DNA of 64,000 nucleotides from an uncultured Bacilli bacterium. Lineage in GTDB: Bacteria > Bacillota_I > Bacilli_A > RF39 > UBA660. Positions 43,897 through 64,000 of the stretch are shown piece after piece; positions within the stretch are counted from its first letter, which is position 1; each line of letters begins with the position of its first letter. The DNA is taken from assembly GCA_963931305.1 (NCBI GenBank), contig OZ006994.1, positions 218,955-282,954 on the forward strand. Direction: 5' to 3'. Both the position numbers and the translations under genes were made by a program. The notes under the pieces are model-generated. The model was not told the DNA's origin, searched no databases, and saw nothing but the letters and a program-made list of their open reading frames with translations.

Positions 43897-46749
43897 TTAT
43901 TCAGTTGGTGATGGTTCACCACTACTTTGATTATTGACAACAGTTACTTTTCTTGTAATTGTTTTTGTGTAATCTTCATAAGTGATTGTATAACTAATGG
44001 TATATGTTCCAGCTGTAGATGTGAATGTATCTAAGGATGCAGGAATTCCTGCAGTACTTGTAATACTTGTTTCAACTTCTACACTTGTTGTTATATCTTT
44101 TCCATCTTCTTTTACTACAACACCTGGATCACGATAATTACTATTTAAATCAACTGTCATATTTGCACTACCAACGAGGCTTACTGTTATTTCTCCTTGG
44201 ACATTAGAAACATTCACTTTTGTTTCTACACCAGGTGCTTCTGCAGCCTTAAAGTTTGAATAACATGTTTTAACAACATATGTACCACTATCTGTAGATT
44301 TTGCAGTAAAAGTAATACTTGTATTATTTGTAAACTGAATTAATCTTAGATCTCCATCTTTTTGTTTTGCATAAATGTTATAACCAACACTTCCTAATAT
44401 ACTTTGATTTTGACCTAATCTAGATTGTAAATAACTGTTTTTATAACCACTATTTGTAAATACTTTACCAACCCAACCAGATAAACTATTGATATCTAAT
44501 TCAGAAGGTGTTTTAATTCCATTCCATGAAATAGAAACAGAATTTCCACTAATACTACTTTTTACATTAGAAACGTCACTTAATTGAGCAAATCTACTAG
44601 ATACTTCAGTAGGTTCAGTTCCTTTTTTAAATAGTTCTGTAATACGCATATTAGCAGGTGTATTTGCACTTGGTAATTTAACTGGATAAGTTTCTCTTTC
44701 TACTTCCACAGAAACAACACCATTTGGTTTTGTAAATTCGGATTTATCAGTAAAGAAATGTCCAGCCACTGCCTTAAATAAATTTCTATGACCACCAGTA
44801 TTGGTTGTACTTACATATTTATCATCTTGTTTATCATATCCATACCAAACAGAAATTGCATATTGCGTATTGATTCCGTCTACCCATAAATCATTTACTG
44901 CATTAGATGGGTAACCTTTTTTCTTAATCAAATCTTCTGTAAAGTTAGAAGTACCTGTTTTAGCACCATAGTGTACACCATTTAAATAAGAAGTACCAAT
45001 TCCATAATCAGCAGCATTATATAATACATTACTAATCATATATGCAGTTTCAGGACTCATAACTTTTTTCTTTTCTGCATCTACTTCTTCTGTTTTATCA
45101 TCTTCACGGTAGACAATTTTTGTATATGTATATGGTTTTGTGTAATATCCTTCATTTGCAAATGCAGCATAAGCACCGGCCATAGTTAATGGAGATTCTC
45201 CATCATAACCACCTAATGCATGTGATTCGTAAACTAAACCATTTTCTACTTGTGGATGTAATCCTAAACTTTCGGCAAAGTTTTTAATGTCAGAATTTTT
45301 ATTTTGTTGGAATGCTTTCAACGCTGGAATATTTCTAGATTCTGCTAAAGCAGTACGTAATGTCATCCAGCCTTGATAAGTTCTATTCCAGTTTTCAATA
45401 CCACCATCTTCGTCATCTGTACCTGAATATGAGTGAGGTTCATCGGCAAATGGAGTAGCCGTAGACCAATCTTGATATTCAAAACCTGGACCGTAATCGT
45501 AAATTGGTTTTGCGGTTGAACCAATTTGACGTTTTACTTTGGTAGCACGTCCTAATTGATTTGCACCACTAATATTTCTACCATTACTAATTGCTGTTAA
45601 AGCACCTGTTTTTACATCGACAACGGCAACAGCACCTTGTACAACATCGTTTTCCCATTTGAATGTTTTTCCATTCATAATATCTTCAACAGCTTCTTGC
45701 TTATCTTTATCCATTGTCGTATAAATTTGCATTGATACATTATAAGGATTATTACCAGTTCTTTCTGTAACATCTTCTACTACAGCATCGATAAAAGATT
45801 GATATTTAAAGCGATCTGTTTGTTCTCCATCTTCTGTAGAAATTGTTTTTACAATTTTATTAACACTTAAGTTGAGTGCAGCTTTATATTCTGCTTCATC
45901 AATATAATTATGACGTTTCATCAAATATAATACTGTTTGACGTCTTTTTTCCGTTAAATCAGGATTAATATTTGGATCATAAGTATTTGGTGCTTGGAAC
46001 ATACCAGCAATCATTGCCGCTTCTGCTAAGTTAATATCTTTTGCACTTTTACCAAAATAAGTTAAACATGCTTGTTCTACTCCCCATGCACCACTACCAA
46101 GATATGGAGCATTTACATAGAATTCCATAATTTCTTCTTTGGTATAATGTTTTTCAATCTGGAAAATAGACATATAAATATCTGTAAATTTACGTGTAAT
46201 ACTACGATTTGTTGAAGTAAAATGATTCTTTGCTATTTGCATAGTTAATGTAGAAGCACCACCAGCATTTTGACCAAGAATCGTTCCAAATCCAGCACGA
46301 AGAAAACGTGGTAAATCAAATCCATTATGTTGGAAGAAACGTGAATCTTCGGTTGCAATAATCGCATCTATTAATACTTCTGGAAGTTGATCATAAGAAA
46401 TTTTTTCACGATTCTCACTTCCGAGTTTCTTAATTACAGAACCATCACTACTATATAAAATAGAAGCTTCTTGATGGTATAACTTATCAGGACTAAATTC
46501 TGGTGCATCTTTAATAATAATAAACATAAAAATTCCAAATGCAACAAGACAGAAAATTCCAAAAATAAGTAATCCCATCAATACTTTTTTTCCAATTTTC
46601 TTTTTCTTACTTTTTCCTTTTGTGATTCCTTTTTTATTTTTTGACATACGTGCAGAACGTGTACTTGCTACTTTTGTTCCTTTCGTATAATCAGTTTTTT
46701 TAGCAGCTCCTGTACGGGCATGTCTTGCTTCAGTTCTTTTCTTTTCCAT
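43897..46749 (-). CDS. ponA: class A penicillin-binding protein (PBP1; glycosyltransferase GT51 + transpeptidase) with C-terminal extension
   Basis: GT51 EDSRFFQHNG, transpeptidase STAKP/SGN/KTGT; basic N-terminus + TM; start taken at the Met doublet after a GGAGGT SD (ORF track extends to 46992); ~250-aa Ser/Thr-rich C-terminal domain. Confidence 0.85.
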   Translation of the reverse strand: MEKKRTEARHARTGAAKKTDYTKGTKVASTRSARMSKNKKGITKGKSKKKKIGKKVLMGLLIFGIFCLVAFGIFMFIIIKDAPEFSPDKLYHQEASILYSSDGSVIKKLGSENREKISYDQLPEVLIDAIIATEDSRFFQHNGFDLPRFLRAGFGTILGQNAGGASTLTMQIAKNHFTSTNRSITRKFTDIYMSIFQIEKHYTKEEIMEFYVNAPYLGSGAWGVEQACLTYFGKSAKDINLAEAAMIAGMFQAPNTYDPNINPDLTEKRRQTVLYLMKRHNYIDEAEYKAALNLSVNKIVKTISTEDGEQTDRFKYQSFIDAVVEDVTERTGNNPYNVSMQIYTTMDKDKQEAVEDIMNGKTFKWENDVVQGAVAVVDVKTGALTAISNGRNISGANQLGRATKVKRQIGSTAKPIYDYGPGFEYQDWSTATPFADEPHSYSGTDDEDGGIENWNRTYQGWMTLRTALAESRNIPALKAFQQNKNSDIKNFAESLGLHPQVENGLVYESHALGGYDGESPLTMAGAYAAFANEGYYTKPYTYTKIVYREDDKTEEVDAEKKKVMSPETAYMISNVLYNAADYGIGTSYLNGVHYGAKTGTSNFTEDLIKKKGYPSNAVNDLWVDGINTQYAISVWYGYDKQDDKYVSTTNTGGHRNLFKAVAGHFFTDKSEFTKPNGVVSVEVERETYPVKLPSANTPANMRITELFKKGTEPTEVSSRFAQLSDVSNVKSSISGNSVSISWNGIKTPSELDINSLSGWVGKVFTNSGYKNSYLQSRLGQNQSILGSVGYNIYAKQKDGDLRLIQFTNNTSITFTAKSTDSGTYVVKTCYSNFKAAEAPGVETKVNVSNVQGEITVSLVGSANMTVDLNSNYRDPGVVVKEDGKDITTSVEVETSITSTAGIPASLDTFTSTAGTYTISYTITYEDYTKTITRKVTVVNNQSSGEPSPTE

Positions 46750-46945
46750 CATAACCTCCATATTCTTCTTACTTATATTATTAATTAAATTGATTAAGTT
46801 TGGACTAAATAAAATGCTATCTAATATTAAAATAATGATAAGGGCTTTTAAAAAGCCTATAGCTAGTATTCCTGCAATTAAAGCTAAAACACTAACAAAC
46901 ATAATTGCTATTTCATAGTGATGATCATTGATATATTGAAATATC

Positions 46946-47536
46946 TTATAAATCTTTTTCAGAAGCTTCACCTTCTTTCTCCATTTCGTCAATTATTTTT
47001 AAATAATCAAGACGTGGAGCATATTTTGTTTCAATTATTTTTCCTTCTTTTTGAAAAAAAGAAATAGGAATTGATTTGCGGTTGTTGTTTTCAATGAATG
47101 ATATCAATTTACTACCATCTAAAAAATATGTCAAATTATAGTGGGTAAAACGGACTATGATAAATCCAATTCCACCATGTTCTATAATCTTTTTTATATG
47201 CTTAATTTGATGGGTATGAATGTTTGCAAGCGGGAAATAACTTTTATTTCTTGTTTCTTTTGCTTCAAAATCAATGTATTTTCCTTTATATACACCATTA
47301 TAATCTGTTGTTGATGGTGTTTTATAATAAGCTTCTTTAATAACCGCATCCATACGAGACTTAAAATCTACTTTTACAACCGTAATTGGAGTAGGTTTTT
47401 TATAAATGACCGCAATATTATGAATTAAATAATATTCATTTGTTACATTGATGTCATGTTCTAAACTCATCCCTCGGTTACCATGTAATATATAAGATTG
47501 TTTTACTTTTGTTCCGTTTGGATAATTCACAAGCAT
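46946..47536 (-). CDS. recU: Holliday junction resolvase RecU
   Basis: 196 aa, RecU sequence features and conserved recU-ponA arrangement. Confidence 0.85.
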   Translation of the reverse strand: MLVNYPNGTKVKQSYILHGNRGMSLEHDINVTNEYYLIHNIAVIYKKPTPITVVKVDFKSRMDAVIKEAYYKTPSTTDYNGVYKGKYIDFEAKETRNKSYFPLANIHTHQIKHIKKIIEHGGIGFIIVRFTHYNLTYFLDGSKLISFIENNNRKSIPISFFQKEGKIIETKYAPRLDYLKIIDEMEKEGEASEKDL

Positions 47537-47655
47537 TCACCATCTCTATTATACTATAAAGTATTCAATTTTTCTACTAGATTTTCTTATCTTTCATACT
47601 TTGACAGATAAAAGAAATACGTGTTATAATGAATCTGTGAAATTTAGGTGATATC

Positions 47656-48243
47656 ATGAAAATTAACCATGTCAATTTAGAAATATCAGCAGTTAGACGC
47701 AGTCAATATCCAACTGATAATAAGCCAGAATTTTTATTAGTAGGGCGTTCTAATGTTGGAAAAAGTAGTTTTATCAATACATTAATTCATAGAAAAAACT
47801 ATGCACGTACTTCATCACAACCAGGAAAAACACAAACGATTAATTTTTATCTAGTAAACGATGAATTTTATTTAGTAGATGCTCCAGGTTATGGGTTCGC
47901 CAATGTTAGTAAACCAATGCGTAAGAAATTTGGATTGATGATGGAAGATTATTTAATTAATCGTCCCAATTTAAAAAATGTATTTATGTTAATTGATTTT
48001 CGTCATAAACCAACTAGTGATGATTTAATGATGTATCAATTTTTAAAATATTATGATATTCCAGTTACAATCGTAGCTACAAAAGTAGATAAAGTAGGAA
48101 TTACTAATCGTCAAAAACAACGTAATTTAATTTTAGATCAATTAGATCTTGTTGTTGGTGATGATTTTGTCATGTTTTCTAGTGTTACAAAACTAGGAAA
48201 AGAAGAAATTTATGATCGAATTGAAAGAACTACAGAAATATAA
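47656..48243 (+). CDS. engB: ribosome biogenesis GTP-binding protein YihA/EngB
   Basis: G1 GRSNVGKSS, G3 DAPGYG, G4 TKVDK; 195 aa. Confidence 0.9.
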   Translation: MKINHVNLEISAVRRSQYPTDNKPEFLLVGRSNVGKSSFINTLIHRKNYARTSSQPGKTQTINFYLVNDEFYLVDAPGYGFANVSKPMRKKFGLMMEDYLINRPNLKNVFMLIDFRHKPTSDDLMMYQFLKYYDIPVTIVATKVDKVGITNRQKQRNLILDQLDLVVGDDFVMFSSVTKLGKEEIYDRIERTTEI

Positions 48244-48280
48244 GGAACAAAAGCATATTCTTACAATAGACTAATACTAG

Positions 48281-48784
48281 GTGATTGATTTGAAACTAGT
48301 ATTGTTAGATAAAGAGAATATGCTTCTTTTTTTGAATTCTGTTCAACCCCATCAATTATCATTTGAACAAAAAGAAAAATTGGAATCTCAATTAAAATCA
48401 TTGTTATTAAAACTAAAACATATTTATCATCTTTCTTTTTGTGGTTATTATACAATTTATGTATATCAAGATTCTTTATATGGAAACATTTTAAAAATAC
48501 ATCATGAAGATTTAGATGATTTTGATTATTTACAAGATGAAATAGAATTATGTTTCCATATTGAAAAAAATAGTAAAATATTATATCGAATTGAAGATCC
48601 GTGTGATGTCAGAAAAAAGTGGCATAAAAAAACAAAACTATATTATTACGATCATCAATTCTATTTTTATATGATAGAAAATATGTCACAATTAGAATTA
48701 GGCCAATTTCTAGAATTCACAGAACCTTGTTTTCAAAATACAGAAGAGATATTGAATTATGGAAAAGTCTTGGATAGTTGGTAG
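48281..48784 (+). CDS. hypothetical protein
   Basis: 167-aa ORF, GTG start, no recognisable motif. Confidence 0.35.
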   Translation: MIDLKLVLLDKENMLLFLNSVQPHQLSFEQKEKLESQLKSLLLKLKHIYHLSFCGYYTIYVYQDSLYGNILKIHHEDLDDFDYLQDEIELCFHIEKNSKILYRIEDPCDVRKKWHKKTKLYYYDHQFYFYMIENMSQLELGQFLEFTEPCFQNTEEILNYGKVLDSW

Positions 48785-48831
48785 AATAAGAAAAGTATGT
48801 TATAATACCGAAAGAAAACGAGGGGATACTT

Positions 48832-50145
48832 ATGAGAAAACCAGTTGTCGCATTACTTGGAAGACCAAATGTCGGAAAAAGTACGTTATTTAATCGTATA
48901 GTAGGGAAAAAAATTTCTATTATTGAAGATACACCAGGTGTTACTAGAGATCGTATCTACGGAAATGTCAAATTTAAAGATTATACATTTCATTTGATCG
49001 ATACTGGAGGAATTGATTTAGCGGATGAACATTTTAATGACTCTATTAAAGTACAAGCAGAACTAGCACTTGACGAAGCAGATTTAATTTTATTTGTTGT
49101 CGATGGAAAAGAAGGTCTTACCGCCAATGATTATGCAGTAAGAGATATGTTATTAAAATCACAAAAACCTGTTATCGTTGTAATCAATAAAATGGATTCT
49201 AAATTGGCCAAAGAAAATATTTATGATTTTTATGAATTAGGCTTAGATACTTATATGCCAGTGAGTGGAGAACAAAACGAAGGAATTTATGATTTATTAG
49301 AAGAAATTACAAAAGATTTCCCTGAAATAGAAGAAGAATATGAAGATGGAATTGTTAAATTCTGTGTCATTGGAAGACCAAATGTTGGCAAAAGTAGTTT
49401 AGTAAATGCGATTGTAGGAGAAGAACGTGTCATTGTTTCAGATGTAGCGGGAACAACCAGAGATGCGATTGATACAAGATTTCGTTATCATGACCATGAT
49501 TATGTTGTGATTGATACTGCTGGTATGAGAAAACGTGGAAAAGTATATGAAGCAGTTGAAAAATATAGTTTACTACGTTCTTTAAAAGCAATTGATCGAA
49601 GTGATGTATGTTTAATTGTAATCAATGCCGAAGAAGGTATTATAGAACATGATAAACATATTGCAGGTTATGCTTTAGATGCTGGAAAAGCCGTTGTATT
49701 AGTAGTCAATAAATGGGATACCATTGATGATAAAGATTCTAAAATGAAAGAATTTAAAGAATTATTAAAATACGAATTTCAATTTATGACATATGCTCCA
49801 ATTGTATTTTTAAGTGCAAAAACAAAAAAAAGAATACATACATTAATGCCAGAAATTTTAAAAGTATATGAAAATAGTAGAAGAGAAATTAAAACAAGTG
49901 TGTTAAATGATGTCATTCGTGATGCATATGCACTGAATTTACCACCAAGCTATAAAGGTAAAAGATTAAAAATTTATTTTTCTAATCAAGCATCTACACA
50001 ACCACCAACATTTAATATACAAGTAAATAGCAAAGGATTAATCCACTTCTCTTATGAAAGATACTTGGAAAATAAATTACGTGAAGCATTTGATTTTGAA
50101 GGTACACCAATTATCTTACAATTTAAAAATAAAGGGGAACAATAA
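48832..50145 (+). CDS. der: ribosome-associated GTPase Der (EngA), tandem GTPase domains + KH-like domain
   Basis: Two G-domains (GRPNVGKST; GRPNVGKSS) each with DTGG/DTAG and NKxD. Confidence 0.95.
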   Translation: MRKPVVALLGRPNVGKSTLFNRIVGKKISIIEDTPGVTRDRIYGNVKFKDYTFHLIDTGGIDLADEHFNDSIKVQAELALDEADLILFVVDGKEGLTANDYAVRDMLLKSQKPVIVVINKMDSKLAKENIYDFYELGLDTYMPVSGEQNEGIYDLLEEITKDFPEIEEEYEDGIVKFCVIGRPNVGKSSLVNAIVGEERVIVSDVAGTTRDAIDTRFRYHDHDYVVIDTAGMRKRGKVYEAVEKYSLLRSLKAIDRSDVCLIVINAEEGIIEHDKHIAGYALDAGKAVVLVVNKWDTIDDKDSKMKEFKELLKYEFQFMTYAPIVFLSAKTKKRIHTLMPEILKVYENSRREIKTSVLNDVIRDAYALNLPPSYKGKRLKIYFSNQASTQPPTFNIQVNSKGLIHFSYERYLENKLREAFDFEGTPIILQFKNKGEQ

Positions 50146-50240: not shown

Positions 50241-51665
50241 ATGAGAAGGTATCACAAAATAAAAGTAGAAAAATTTTTAATAGGAACAATATGTGTATCT
50301 GCATTGTTAATGTTAGGTATTGGCTACGCGATATTAACACAACAATTAGAAATTAATGGAACTGCTCAAATTACATCTAATTGGAAAATACTATTTACAA
50401 GTGCGGAAGAAAAAGAAATGATGAATGCGACAACGACGAGAAAGGAAATTTCTAATCAAACAACATTGAATTTAAATGTTGTGTTACAACAACCAGGAGC
50501 TAGCGCAACGTATGATGTAGTCGTAGAAAATCAAGGAACTTTAGATGCAGTACTTTCTAATATTGAAGGAATTGAAGAGAGTAATCAGAAGGATCCTAAA
50601 TCTATTAAAGTAAGTATAGACAATATTGAAGTAGGAGATCCGTTATTAGTAAATGATAAAAAAACATTTCAAGTAAAAGTATATTGGGATGAAAATGTAG
50701 ATTTTAGTGAAACAAACATGAATAAAGAAATACAAATTACTCTGACATATGAACAAAGTGATAATGGGGTACCAGTAGGACCACTTCCAAGTGATGGAGT
50801 AGATATGGGTGGCCAAAACGTAAAATTAGTAACATCAGGAGACGGACTTTATGAAGATAGCACTAGAGTAGGAAGATATGTATATAAAGGAGCAAATCCC
50901 AATAACTATATACAGTTTAATAATGAATTGTGGAGAATTGTTGCTAAAGAAGCAGATGGAACCTATAAGATTGTAAGAAATGAGGTGCTTTCAGAAAAAA
51001 TTTCATTCGATAATAAAGGATATAGAGATGCAGATAGTAATGGAGCAGGTGGTACTTATTGTGCAAATAGTAGCTATGGATGTAATGCTTGGGCAGCCAA
51101 TTCAAATCTAGTAGGAAAGCCAGAAGAATTTACAAATACAATTCAAACAGGAACTGTGTTATTAGATTCTACTTTAAATCAATATTTGAATGGAGAATAT
51201 TTATCTAGCATTACAACAAATTCAGAATATATCGTAAAACATGATTGGGGAGTAGGTACAACATATACAGATGCAAGTAAAAGTGATGATGGTGATGTAG
51301 ATCCAAGTGAATTAGTTGCAGAAGAAAATGTATATCAATGGAATGGAAAAGTTGCACTATTATCATCAAGTGATGTTCAATTATCAGTAAGTAATGAAGA
51401 ATTGTGTGGAACATCTAATAAATATGAAAACAATTATAAGACATGTGCAGCTAATAATTATTTAGCAAATCTTGAAAAATGGTTGCTCTTGCTGTCTCCT
51501 GCTGTTGGCACTAACAATATTCGTTGGGTTCGCATAGATGGTAAAATCAATAATACTACTCTTACAAATGGTAGTACGGCCAAAATTCGACCTGCTCTCT
51601 ATCTTAGTTCTAATATTAAGTTGAGTGGAAATGGAACCCAATCAAGTCCATATATTCTCGGATAG
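50241..51665 (+). CDS. secreted protein: N-terminal TasA/camelysin-like domain fused to the C-terminal LWRI...PY-I-G module
   Basis: N-terminus LGIGYAILTQQLEINGTAQITSNWKI...ATYDVVVENQGTLDAVL (TasA-like core); C-terminus NNYIQFNNELWRIV...KIRPALYLSSNIKLSGNGTQSSPYILG shared with the 23728 protein. Confidence 0.5.
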   Translation: MRRYHKIKVEKFLIGTICVSALLMLGIGYAILTQQLEINGTAQITSNWKILFTSAEEKEMMNATTTRKEISNQTTLNLNVVLQQPGASATYDVVVENQGTLDAVLSNIEGIEESNQKDPKSIKVSIDNIEVGDPLLVNDKKTFQVKVYWDENVDFSETNMNKEIQITLTYEQSDNGVPVGPLPSDGVDMGGQNVKLVTSGDGLYEDSTRVGRYVYKGANPNNYIQFNNELWRIVAKEADGTYKIVRNEVLSEKISFDNKGYRDADSNGAGGTYCANSSYGCNAWAANSNLVGKPEEFTNTIQTGTVLLDSTLNQYLNGEYLSSITTNSEYIVKHDWGVGTTYTDASKSDDGDVDPSELVAEENVYQWNGKVALLSSSDVQLSVSNEELCGTSNKYENNYKTCAANNYLANLEKWLLLLSPAVGTNNIRWVRIDGKINNTTLTNGSTAKIRPALYLSSNIKLSGNGTQSSPYILG

Positions 51666-51745
51666 AAAGTTACATCGTAGCTTTCTTTTTTTATGAACCT
51701 AATACTGAAAAAAACATATATTATCATAGAAAGAGGGGATATGGT

Positions 51746-51988
51746 TTGAAATTTACAGATAGTTTTTTTGATAAGGTGGAAAAGAAAACCAATGTAAAAA
51801 AAGATACCATTTTAGATTTTGCTAAAAAATTACAACAAAATGATTTAAAAAATGAAGGAACATTACGTGAAGTGATTCAAGAATTAGGAAAAATGACGGG
51901 AAAAGAAGTATCGAAAGAGAAAGAAGATAAAATTGTGAATGCTGTTGTCAATGATCATGTGCCAAAAGATATGAATCAATTTTTTTAG
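51746..51988 (+). CDS. stage VI sporulation protein F (SpoVIF)-like small protein
   Basis: 80 aa; FFDKVEKKTNVKKDTILDFAKKL...LREVIQELGKMTGKEVSKEKEDKIVNAV resembles my recollection of B. subtilis SpoVIF. Confidence 0.4.
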   Translation: MKFTDSFFDKVEKKTNVKKDTILDFAKKLQQNDLKNEGTLREVIQELGKMTGKEVSKEKEDKIVNAVVNDHVPKDMNQFF

Positions 51989-52072
51989 TTGTTAATTTAT
52001 GTCAATTATAATAAAATGGCTTGCTCAACTTTTTTGAGAATGATACAATGAATATTGTAGGAGAGTGAGGAT

Positions 52073-52717
52073 ATGGATGAAGTTGTTATACTACAAGATC
52101 AATACAACAAATTAAGAGAACATATTTTAACAACTGCAATCGGGTTATTAAAGTCATTCTCTACATTGGAATTAGAAGAAATTACCAAAAAGATAGAGAG
52201 ATGTTCTCCTGTACCCTTACAAGAGGAAGAAAAAGAGTTTATCACTAATACGTTAATTACTCATTTTAATGATTGGTGTGTAGCTCGTAAAGAAGCTGAA
52301 GCAGAAAGCGAAATTGAAAAGTTAGATCGTGATAAAAAAGTACCGAAAGGTTTAACAGAAATAGGAAAACAAAAAGTAGTCTTAAATATTCAAAAGAATT
52401 TAAATCAGTTACAAGCATGTATTTATGAATTTTATGTTCCATCTAATACATCTGCTTATAATGATTTTACTTCTCGTAGTACAGAAGATATCGTCAATTA
52501 TTTTATAGAACATGACCGTATGGATTTTTTTGAAATCAATCAATTAAAAAAAGATATTTCAATGTTGTTAGATCAGTATTTAACGAATTTTGATGATTCT
52601 TATCACCAAATTTATAGTCAGTACTTTTTTAAATTAGATATGGGAATTCAGAAATATTTAAATCGTGAAAAGAAAAGTCCCAAAACTGAAAAAAAGAAAG
52701 TGAAAGTCAGTCGATAA
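52073..52717 (+). CDS. hypothetical protein
   Basis: 214-aa ORF with GGAGAGTGAGG RBS; helical, basic C-terminus. Confidence 0.35.
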   Translation: MDEVVILQDQYNKLREHILTTAIGLLKSFSTLELEEITKKIERCSPVPLQEEEKEFITNTLITHFNDWCVARKEAEAESEIEKLDRDKKVPKGLTEIGKQKVVLNIQKNLNQLQACIYEFYVPSNTSAYNDFTSRSTEDIVNYFIEHDRMDFFEINQLKKDISMLLDQYLTNFDDSYHQIYSQYFFKLDMGIQKYLNREKKSPKTEKKKVKVSR

Positions 52718-52778
52718 AATACTGGCTTTTTCTTTGCAAACAAAAATATTTATGATATGATTATAATGGTGATAGTAG

Positions 52779-61882: not shown

Positions 61883-61896
61883 ATTGGAGGTTTTGT

Positions 61897-64000
61897 ATGT
61901 TAAAAAGAGTTAAGAAAATACAAAAAAATAAACAAGTATTGATACTTGCTCTTTTTGCGTGCATTCTTCCTATTACAACGATTGCTTTTACCTATGGAGC
62001 ACTTAAAACATCAAATCCAGTAAATACAATTTCTAAAGGGATTGTTGGAGATACTGTTTATGTAAGCGATGCTACCAGTGATTATTATTACTATACAGGA
62101 CAAAATTATACACATTCTACCAATTCTCAATTACCATCATTAGATAATAAAAATTATTATAATGACTCTAATTTGGTAAAAGTTAAGATTATTTATGATG
62201 GAACTAGTTATGATGGAAACCATACAGGATATGTATCACTTACTGAACGACAAAGTAAATTTGTATATGAGAAATATTATCCTGTGGAAAATAATGAAAT
62301 TGAAATTGAATTAATTGATAATCCTTTTGCAGATCATCCTAACACTTATGCATTTAATGGTTGGGTAACTGATTATAAAGGAGCAGAAGTTTCTTTTGAT
62401 GAGGATTATTATGTAAGATATGTTCATGTTCCAGTTACTTTTTCTGGGGGAATACCAAATGAAATTGAAATTCATATGTATGCTTCATGGACAAGAGCAA
62501 CTGTTGCATATGTAAATGGCAGTGTATCAGTGAATCAAGCCCAAGCACAATTAAATAGTGCTGGAATGCATGAGATATCTACTGTAAATTATATTTATGA
62601 ATATCCTGATGTAAATGGTTATTATAAAGGAAGTACCATTACAACAACAGCTACAAAGTCATTATTTGGTGGTACAGATGTAGAATATGGTACTTGTACG
62701 GATTGTTATGATGAAGATGGAAACTATCATAGTAATTATCAATGTCCTGCTCCATCTTTTGGTTTTTTAGAAACCGGAACCAAAACAAATACTTGTAATG
62801 TTTATTTTTTACAAGATGAGAATGATACTTTTGAAGTTGGTACGACTTATTATGAAAAAAACTGGAATGGGTTTGTTGACGCGAATTTAGAAGCTACGAT
62901 TATTGGAACAGAAGAAAGTGATTTGTTTGATGAAAATACAAATATGTCAGGGTATTATCGTCAAGTGTCTGTTTCTTATGGTAGTAGTTTAAATGGTTAT
63001 TATAGTAATACAGGTGCGAAAGAAACAGGAACTTGTAATGTTAGAAATGGTTGTACAGCATATGAACTCATTCAATTTTATAAAGATGATGGTACAGAAG
63101 AGTTACTAAATCCAGATGAAACTTATTACTATTTGACAACAAGAGATACGAATCTATTAGTCATGAATGGAAATATGTCTAGCTCTTGGGATGAAGATAG
63201 TACCAAGCCATTTACATTAACTGGTATTTATCAAGGAAGAGATTATAATCCAACTTGGACAGTTAGTGGAGAAAGTGTTATTTGTTATTCTGATATTCGT
63301 ATTGAAAATATTAGAATTGCTACAACAACAAGGCAAGGAGAATCAGACCCAAGTTCTAGTAATAATGCAAGTGCTACGTTATATGGAAATTATCACAATG
63401 TAAAAATTGGAAGAAATATTAAACAAAGTGGAAATTATGTTAATTTTACTTCCTTATTAGGTGGTTTAAATAATACAAGTATTTGGGGAGGTGGAAGTTT
63501 TGGCTCTGCTTCTAATCCAGAACGTTACCGTTTTGTGGTAGAATCTGGTAGTTATAACTCATCTTCTGCAACGATGGGTTCTAGAACAGGTACAACGGGA
63601 ACACAACTTTATACTGAAATGGATGTTATTTATGGAAATGATTATGATAGAGTAACAGAAAATAATAATCTATTACGTATTTATTTTTGTACTGCTGGTG
63701 CCTGGGGTGGAAGAATCTATTCTAGTAATGATGCGATGATTCCAGCAATTAATACCATTGTAAAAAGTGGTAATTTCGGAACCAATGATATTGATCATAC
63801 TTCTGGTATTTATGTTGGTGGTCGTGACGGAGGAACACACTATGCTGTTAGAACCTTAAAAGTAGAGGGTGGTTCTATCCGTAATTTAATTGGAGGACCA
63901 TTAACTGCTTCATCAAAAAGTGAACAAAACGATATATTTATTTATATGACTGGTGGAGAAGTGGATATGATTGTAGGAGGAGCGGGTACTTCTGAAACAT
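61897..64000 (+). CDS. large secreted glycine-rich (beta-helix-like) protein, 5' partial (runs off window end)
   Basis: GGAGG RBS, signal/TM N-terminus, >700 codons open to the window end, Gly/Asn/Thr-rich repeats (GGRDGGTHY, GGEVDMIVGGAGTSE). Confidence 0.5.
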   Translation, partial: MLKRVKKIQKNKQVLILALFACILPITTIAFTYGALKTSNPVNTISKGIVGDTVYVSDATSDYYYYTGQNYTHSTNSQLPSLDNKNYYNDSNLVKVKIIYDGTSYDGNHTGYVSLTERQSKFVYEKYYPVENNEIEIELIDNPFADHPNTYAFNGWVTDYKGAEVSFDEDYYVRYVHVPVTFSGGIPNEIEIHMYASWTRATVAYVNGSVSVNQAQAQLNSAGMHEISTVNYIYEYPDVNGYYKGSTITTTATKSLFGGTDVEYGTCTDCYDEDGNYHSNYQCPAPSFGFLETGTKTNTCNVYFLQDENDTFEVGTTYYEKNWNGFVDANLEATIIGTEESDLFDENTNMSGYYRQVSVSYGSSLNGYYSNTGAKETGTCNVRNGCTAYELIQFYKDDGTEELLNPDETYYYLTTRDTNLLVMNGNMSSSWDEDSTKPFTLTGIYQGRDYNPTWTVSGESVICYSDIRIENIRIATTTRQGESDPSSSNNASATLYGNYHNVKIGRNIKQSGNYVNFTSLLGGLNNTSIWGGGSFGSASNPERYRFVVESGSYNSSSATMGSRTGTTGTQLYTEMDVIYGNDYDRVTENNNLLRIYFCTAGAWGGRIYSSNDAMIPAINTIVKSGNFGTNDIDHTSGIYVGGRDGGTHYAVRTLKVEGGSIRNLIGGPLTASSKSEQNDIFIYMTGGEVDMIVGGAGTSET

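Follow-up and report, generated by a model that had tools for sequence, protein, structure and literature searches.

In the TasA superfamily, the mature N-terminus of the subunit acts as a donor strand and has at position 2 an aromatic residue that is conserved (PMC9245690; bioRxiv 10.64898/2026.01.04.697558), and the SipW site of TasA itself is TWA/AF (the slash marks the cut), with tryptophan at P2 and phenylalanine at P2′ (PMC10269814). A signal-peptidase-like protein without activity is essential for the assembly of a pilus, which provides a precedent for non-catalytic members of this enzyme family (PMC4049620). A third relevant system is CoCoPALM, in which an NxD McrB-like GTPase is fused to an FtsB-like transmembrane (TM) segment and coiled coil, the McrB and McrC homologues have coiled coils, and an association with signal peptidases is reported (Bell et al., eLife 2024, PMC11090510). 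CoCoPALM was named there in two sentences, with its description deferred to a later paper (PMC11090510); a literature search found no follow-up papers, and the supplementary text of the CoCoNuT paper is silent on the class. The locus described here was analysed in a window of 64,000 nt, the whole stretch of DNA under analysis (contig OZ006994.1, positions 218,955-282,954 of the forward strand, assembly GCA_963931305.1), of which the part at 50241-64000 was studied. This part contains 15 open reading frames (ORFs), labelled A to O (Table 1), at the coordinates given by an earlier, sequence-only reading of the same DNA.

We propose that the locus encodes a surface fibre of several subunits, processed by SipW and coupled to a GTPase motor, and is kept as a conserved block in RF39-like gut Bacilli, a reading that we place slightly above an even chance. 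Comparisons across species refer to 80 loci, the best of 250 species-representative genomes encoding a relative of the GTPase G, with G identities of 71-96%. The protein at 57846 (I) had been read as a SipW-type S26B peptidase, and this was borne out, as its TIGR02228 score is 76.2 bits (cut-off 51.85) and it keeps the GSMxP serine (GSMLP), the THR histidine, and the acidic box GTANQ-x-x-D, all conserved in its orthologues. By this score and these catalytic boxes, I is a true SipW/S26B-type peptidase; on the Bacillus-specific SipW model NF046067 it scores 54 bits, below the cut-off of 190. A second copy, I′, encoded beyond the window, keeps the same three boxes, the acidic one reading GDANN. 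Protein D matches TIGR02228 over its full length at 28.8 bits, below the cut-off, and profile comparison with hhalign links D and the second-block protein R to I with probabilities of 97.4% and 99%, respectively, as do cross-hits between hidden Markov models (HMMs; E 4e-5 and 2e-6 for D and I). D and R lack the serine and histidine, which in D are replaced, and have a deletion at the acidic box, but retain the N- and C-terminal membrane spans, so that D is homologous to SipW but is predicted to be a catalytically dead pseudo-peptidase. The description of one active SipW and one degenerate paralogue is correct for the window, and the full cluster has two of each, the active-type I and I′ and the dead D and R. 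In 66-70 of the 80 loci, a gene of D or R type is found upstream. A later start for D at about 52815 yields a 157-aa form, as called in other assemblies. In one locus (L088:537-9883), the second peptidase has 372 aa, about twice the usual length, and may be a fusion.

The presence of a dedicated SipW is matched by a set of exported proteins with a shared cleavage motif. At least seven exported proteins carry a TasA-type predicted site, E, J, K, N, and O in the window and S and N′ beyond it. The motif that ends the hydrophobic segment is at least 90% conserved in orthologues of up to 80 species and in six families (Table 1), with the common form T-[YF]-[AG]/x-[FY]. The signal-peptide ends FAWF (J), YAKY (K), and YAWF (N) noted by the sequence-only reading are real at this level of conservation, as is its picture of several exported proteins with SipW/TasA-type sites beside a dedicated SipW. 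M, the 60203 protein of that reading, does have a strong membrane anchor in place of the cleavage motif. The TasA fibre chain in PDB entry 8AUR starts with AFNDIK, and hhalign sets the TYAKY of K exactly on the TWAAF of TasA, with the two signal peptides in register. Among 140 representatives of the N family, TIGR04088 was the most frequent family match (59 representatives, best E 1.6e-4). Class III signals like those of type IV pilins were considered and rejected, because a prepilin peptidase is missing and the motif comes after the hydrophobic segment, not before it.

The sequence-only reading went further and assigned a TasA-like core to at least five of these proteins, including A at 50241, which would make the locus an expanded tapA-sipW-tasA locus whose subunits are very divergent but true TasA/camelysin homologues, forming a biofilm-matrix or spore-surface fibre to which G and H are accessory. 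The SipW and the TasA-type cleavage site are what this explanation predicts, distant archaeal members of the superfamily have been found only by the most sensitive comparisons, and a SpoVIF gene lies nearby. The searches for homology do not support it. A, E, J, K, M, N, and O did not match PF12389 at E ≤ 0.01. Nor did this family appear in the lists of the 25 commonest families drawn up for 150 J-, K-, S-, N-, M-, and E-family members (E ≤ 1) and for the 140 N-family representatives (E ≤ 0.1), together 290 members scanned. Profiles of J, K plus S, and N searched against all PDB sequences returned nothing below E 0.4 and no TasA, and in hhalign comparisons of seven family alignments with verified TasA the probability did not exceed 1.3%, only the signal peptide being aligned. 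A matched neither PF12389 nor TIGR04088, and its N-terminal domain is weakly like J and K (hhalign 62-72%). Given the absence of a PF12389, PDB-profile, or hhalign link, membership of the TasA/camelysin family is not supported. The subunits are predicted to work like TasA substrates yet are not TasA/camelysin members by every test run, although for N a very distant link to the TasA superfamily is possible. We consider an expanded TasA locus unlikely. A SipW-type signal peptide alone does not make a protein a TasA homologue.

The link to spores suggested by the sequence-only reading fared similarly. The SpoVIF gene (B) is real, with a PF14069 score of 79 bits, but only 5 of the 80 loci have it beside the cluster, and as this adjacency is not conserved, the link to spores appears incidental. 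A spore appendage locus was rejected as a candidate on the same ground.

The exported proteins fall into few groups. J, K, and S form one family (hhalign K-S 99.9%, J-S 95%, J-K 37%), while N and M share only a C-terminal motif, W-x-EG-x-D-x-DC (hhalign 85.5%, BLASTP E 0.003, and HMM cross-hits), beyond which an all-against-all BLASTP of the locus proteins found nothing; E joined no group in the profile comparison within the locus. Searched singly, E, J, K, M, N, and the window part of O matched no Pfam or NCBIfam family. AlphaFold2 models of J (predicted local distance difference test, pLDDT, 84) and N (pLDDT 84, predicted template modelling score 0.83) are both confident beta-sandwiches with a low-confidence stretch directly after the predicted cleavage site. 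The residues that follow the cut, WFIY in J and WF-x-x-N in N, show stronger conservation than the rest of each protein. N is the best candidate for the main subunit and M a candidate base or anchor. The C-terminus of N (61790-61850) has a near-invariant acidic motif, W-x-EGQD-V-DCEN, M has YLEGDDPDC (60800-60880), and J (58850-58900) carries WPYESGNDELDT and K a related W...D...DT, each directly before the last strand; by analogy with AbpX and cannulae, these acidic motifs of N, M, J, and K could be calcium sites. A tblastn search of N against plasmids gave no match.

The models also bear on whether these proteins form a fibre. Foldseek found nothing for J in the PDB at E ≤ 1e-3, and the top fold matches of J and N are lectins, carbohydrate-binding modules, and jelly rolls of virus envelopes and capsids. 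Such folds would suit an explanation in which the exported proteins are a non-fibre coat, adhesins, or enzyme-binding modules that need SipW, with the dead peptidases and G/H regulating their release or its quality control. O, with its YGGGN-type repeats seen by eye, looks like a stand-alone beta-helix adhesin, and that the subunits polymerise is a prediction. The higher conservation of the residues after the cut is, on the other hand, expected of an interaction strand and not of a free N-terminus, and small paralogous subunits together with a giant protein and a membrane-anchored relative are the usual layout of a pilus or fibre locus. We regard the non-fibre explanation as improbable.

The most conserved part of the locus is its centre, the G/H pair, on which the sequence-only reading was silent, as it was on E and F, the giant O, and the second SipW module past the window. 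Residues 197-369 of G match structures of Escherichia coli McrB (E 0.004), and the core is 35-39% identical to ATPases encoded beside DUF2357 genes on Polaromonas and Deinococcus plasmids. The GTINNDD of G aligns to GTANHDE, the NxD variant of the McrB signature, in CnuB-like ATPases, and the motifs of G are at least 90% conserved across species. Two hydrophobic segments lie at residues 9-27 and 62-80, residues ~ 88-120 appear heptad-like by eye, and the N-terminal regions of G gave sub-threshold matches to FtsL in 24 of 49 cases and to FtsL_2 in 11 of 49 (best E 0.004). The partner H scores 47.2 bits on PF09823 (DUF2357, the N-terminal domain of McrC) against a cut-off of 23.3 and matches a Deinococcus DUF2357 protein by BLASTP (E 9e-10). 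Pfam showed no nuclease domain in H and the H profile had no match among PDB sequences; it is possible that H hides an inactivated PD-(D/E)xK nuclease fold. With a median of 1.73 bits per residue, compared to 0.4-1.2 for the others, G is by far the most conserved gene of the cluster.

Conservation of the cluster as a whole was assessed from gene order. Across the 80 loci, the genes keep the order (D/R)-E-F-G-H-I-J-K(minus)-[L]-M-N-O with hardly any variation, G and H lying between F and I in 79 of them, and neighbouring genes overlap at D/E (20 nt), H/I (29 nt), I/J (~ 41-50 nt), and M/N (17 nt). The genes are co-conserved and appear to be partly translationally coupled. Many genomes have a second block, O-[P]-Q-R-S-I′-N′, directly upstream of D/E; here it is found downstream of O. 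Loci retrieved independently through relatives of N showed the same cluster with G and H inside, flanked by housekeeping genes, uvrB and bipA in one and ftsY-ylxM-ffh in the other. The 80 loci come from uncultured Tenericutes, Mycoplasmatota, and Bacilli and from Clostridium sp. CAG:451, 914, 628, 609, and 567; since CAG-914 corresponds to order RF39, family UBA660, in GTDB, an RF39-like lineage is indicated for these loci. G has more than 8000 close relatives, and at E ≤ 1e-3 a library clustered at 50% identity contains 4179 representatives of the N family. Immediately upstream of the cluster in locus L088 (537-9883) are ezrA, ftsY, ylxM, a gene for a DUF87 ATPase, and ffh, which include members of the signal recognition particle pathway.

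Taken as a fibre system, the locus would work as follows. The Sec machinery would export the subunits, which would stay tethered by their signal anchors until the active SipW copies cut after the small residue and exposed the conserved N-terminus with its aromatic residue at position 2. Given the donor strand of the TasA superfamily, with an aromatic at the same position, and the similar layouts of its loci, we propose that this N-terminus is the donor strand through which the beta-sandwich subunits link up into a fibre, as in TasA and Abp filaments. N would be the main subunit and J, K, and S minor subunits, while M would form the membrane base and O the distal adhesin or tip. The dead SipW copies, D and R, may retain subunits at the membrane as assembly chaperones, as SipA does for the pili of Streptococcus pyogenes. 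G and H would form a hexameric GTPase, fixed to the membrane by the FtsL/FtsB-like anchor, that energises or gates release or polymerisation. The more specific proposal, that an McrB-type GTPase and a nuclease-less McrC have been recruited to the membrane and drive or gate a donor-strand fibre tipped by a probable beta-helix adhesin of ~ 2400 aa, is possible but in our view doubtful.

Several points weigh against a fibre system coupled to a motor. Filament formation, cleavage, and GTPase activity are all inferred, and the role of G/H is pure inference. As the 80 loci were retrieved through G, its presence in all of them is given by construction. A crude heptad score was negative for coiled coils in both G and H. 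TIGR04088 matched no window protein at E ≤ 0.01 and 9 of the 150 mixed family members, and a match to the orthologues of J, K, S, M, and E is improbable. The locus is best filed in CoCoPALM by its predicted proteins, a placement that goes by shared features rather than by phylogeny. Finally, G matches the PADLOC candidate phage-defence model PDC-M26A at 119 bits (E 5.6e-35), a match that we have taken as one at the level of the AAA+ domain only.

This last match, together with that to McrB, raises the question of whether G and H are merely chance neighbours, an McrBC-type (CoCoNuT-like) defence module lying inside a SipW-dependent surface cluster. The closest annotated relatives of G are indeed found in plasmid operons of CoCoNuT type that pair an ATPase with DUF2357. 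G, however, has a membrane anchor where a nucleic-acid-binding domain would be expected, and H is without a detectable nuclease domain. The pair keeps its place between F and I, the H gene overlaps that of SipW, and the loci retrieved through N show the same arrangement. The identity of G across species is unlike that of patchy, fast-evolving defence islands, and the literature already ties the CoCoPALM clade to signal peptidases (PMC11090510). We consider a defence module very unlikely, and a mobile or defence island was likewise rejected, the position and sequence being too conserved. A fibre system with G and H as integral parts remains the reading that we prefer.

Table 1 Predicted genes of the cluster and its neighbours, with window positions unless a contig is named (L001 to L003, longer metagenome contigs with the same locus)
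Gene	Position	Strand	Predicted product	Motif	Loci of 80
A	50241-51665		474 aa; one N-terminal TM segment; C-terminal DUF6273 (33 bits)		
B	51746-51988		SpoVIF family (PF14069; NF052662 68.5 bits, below cut-off 130)		
C	52073-52717		214 aa, unannotated, next after B; no family match above cut-off		
D	52779-53288	+	Dead SipW-type paralogue; two TM segments (residues 7-25, 129-147)		
E	53269-54195	+	Exported, 308 aa; signal/anchor ends in motif	TYGRY	73
F	54207-55187	+	Cytoplasmic, 326 aa; no TM segment		77
G	55199-56722	+	Membrane-anchored McrB-like AAA+ GTPase; two TM segments, coiled-coil-like linker, Walker A/Walker B/NxD core		
H	56726-57874	+	McrC-like DUF2357 partner		79
I	57846-58445	+	Predicted active SipW-type (archaeal/endoplasmic reticulum (ER)-type, S26B) signal peptidase I; N- and C-terminal TM segments		78
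J	58396-58998	+	Exported beta-sandwich, J/K/S family; gene callers start at 58405	FA/WFIY	
K	59007-59597	-	Exported J/K/S-family paralogue	TYA/KY	
L	59813-60127	+	Small; one TM segment (residues 3-21), acidic tail		7 (closest relatives only)
M	60175-60915	+	Membrane-anchored; strong TM segment 35-53		55
N	60899-61882	+	Exported beta-sandwich, 327 aa	YA/WF	
O	61897-64000, runs off window; full length L001:10999-18129	+	N-terminal 701 aa of 2376-aa exported protein	FTYG	52 (match)
P	After O, L001-L003		41 aa		
Q	L001:18249-19802		Cytoplasmic, 517 aa; several heptad-like segments		
R	After O, L001-L003		Dead SipW-type paralogue, 177 aa		
S	After O, L001-L003		Exported, 190 aa, J/K/S family	SFGxF	
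I′	After O, L001-L003		Peptidase-like, 190 aa		

The longer contigs extend the cluster at least 9 kb past the end of the window, so that the 50241-64000 region, with a guanine-cytosine content of ~ 29% throughout, holds only part of a larger cluster. This agrees with the statement of the sequence-only reading that the locus is far larger than the three-gene tapA-sipW-tasA operon. The repeats of O, judged by eye, suggest a predicted beta-helix. A sortase-dependent pilus was rejected, as no LPXTG was seen at the C-terminus of O and the locus has no sortase. F had no Pfam or NCBIfam family above cut-off, and the profiles of E and F had no match among all PDB sequences. Both F and Q are conserved and cytoplasmic and belong to no detectable family, though the rest of the system acts outside the membrane. 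K is on the minus strand in nearly all loci that contain it, while the rest of the cluster is co-directional; the distance from its stop to the J end is 8 nt, and it is followed by a terminator-like hairpin (59006-58985). A promoter scan was not enriched over shuffled sequence (74 found, 80.5 expected).

Only 2 to 5 of the 80 loci have A, B, or C beside the cluster. A, which has its own terminator-like hairpin at 51664-51686, is beside the cluster in only two and is for that reason probably a separate surface protein; B and C co-occur only in the closest relatives. Upstream, at 43897-50145, the translations look by eye like those of a 1031-aa class A penicillin-binding protein (minus strand), an overlapping RecU-like gene, an EngB/YsxC-like GTPase, and a Der/EngA-like double GTPase. 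If these are housekeeping genes, the cluster lies in the core chromosome and the organism makes peptidoglycan. A search of the literature on RF39 cell biology found nothing useful.

RF39-like Bacilli, whose genomes are small, are widespread in the gut and for the most part uncultured, and a cluster of ~ 27-30 kb that is kept throughout them is likely central to how they deal with their surroundings. The cluster appears to unite SipW/TasA-type processing, SipA-like pseudo-peptidase chaperones, and McrBC motors, which are usually studied apart, and it offers a parts list for CoCoPALM, a class that has been named but not described. TasA-like fibres are otherwise thought to polymerise without a motor, and we know of no case in which one is needed; if the fibre model is true, this would be the first energy-coupled assembly route for such fibres. 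A motor-driven fibre, if confirmed, would also add a new class to the filament-assembly machines of monoderm bacteria and be a core feature of RF39.

Compared to the tapA-sipW-tasA operon of Bacillus subtilis, the locus has the same dedicated ER-type SipW, an exported accessory or anchor protein, and a small P1 residue flanked by aromatics at P2 and P2′ (TWA/AF compared with TYA/WF and similar). It differs in having at least 15 genes rather than three, two active and two dead peptidases, and a predicted GTPase motor pair, while its substrates do not match PF12389 or TasA by profile and probably not by fold, and no TapA homologue was found. The AbpA/AbpB, AbpX, and Tafi loci (PMC9245690; bioRxiv 10.64898/2026.01.04.697558) are similar in pairing a TIGR02228-type peptidase with major and minor subunits, a tip, and an anchor, and in having an aromatic residue at mature position 2 and a near-C-terminal acidic motif that is a possible calcium binder, but their peptidase accessories are DUF5305 or ten-TM proteins and not a dead SipW or an McrB-like GTPase. 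SipA/LepA of S. pyogenes (PMC4049620) is, like D and R, a non-catalytic signal-peptidase-like protein; it is encoded in a pilus locus and is essential for pilus polymerisation, which makes it a functional precedent for D and R. SipA, however, derives from the P-type (S26A) enzymes and serves a sortase pilus, whereas D and R are of the ER/archaeal type and no sortase or LPXTG was seen in this locus.

With McrBC and CoCoNuT systems the locus shares the AAA+ GTPase core (Walker A, Walker B, and NxD) and the DUF2357 partner. It differs from them in that no nuclease domain was detected in H, that G is membrane-anchored and lacks a DNA- or RNA-binding N-terminal domain, and that the pair is embedded in, and co-conserved with, genes for exported proteins. 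CoCoPALM has the same NxD McrB-like GTPase, the same DUF2357 McrC homologue, and the same association with a signal peptidase, seen here in the overlap of I with H and in the D- or R-type gene upstream. The weaker part of this likeness lies in the N-terminus of G, where TM segments are present, the FtsL matches are sub-threshold, and a heptad-like stretch was seen by eye only. Published accounts of CoCoPALM contain nothing on paired active and dead SipW, on families of exported subunits, on the giant O, or on conservation across the order in RF39-like bacteria, all of which are described here.

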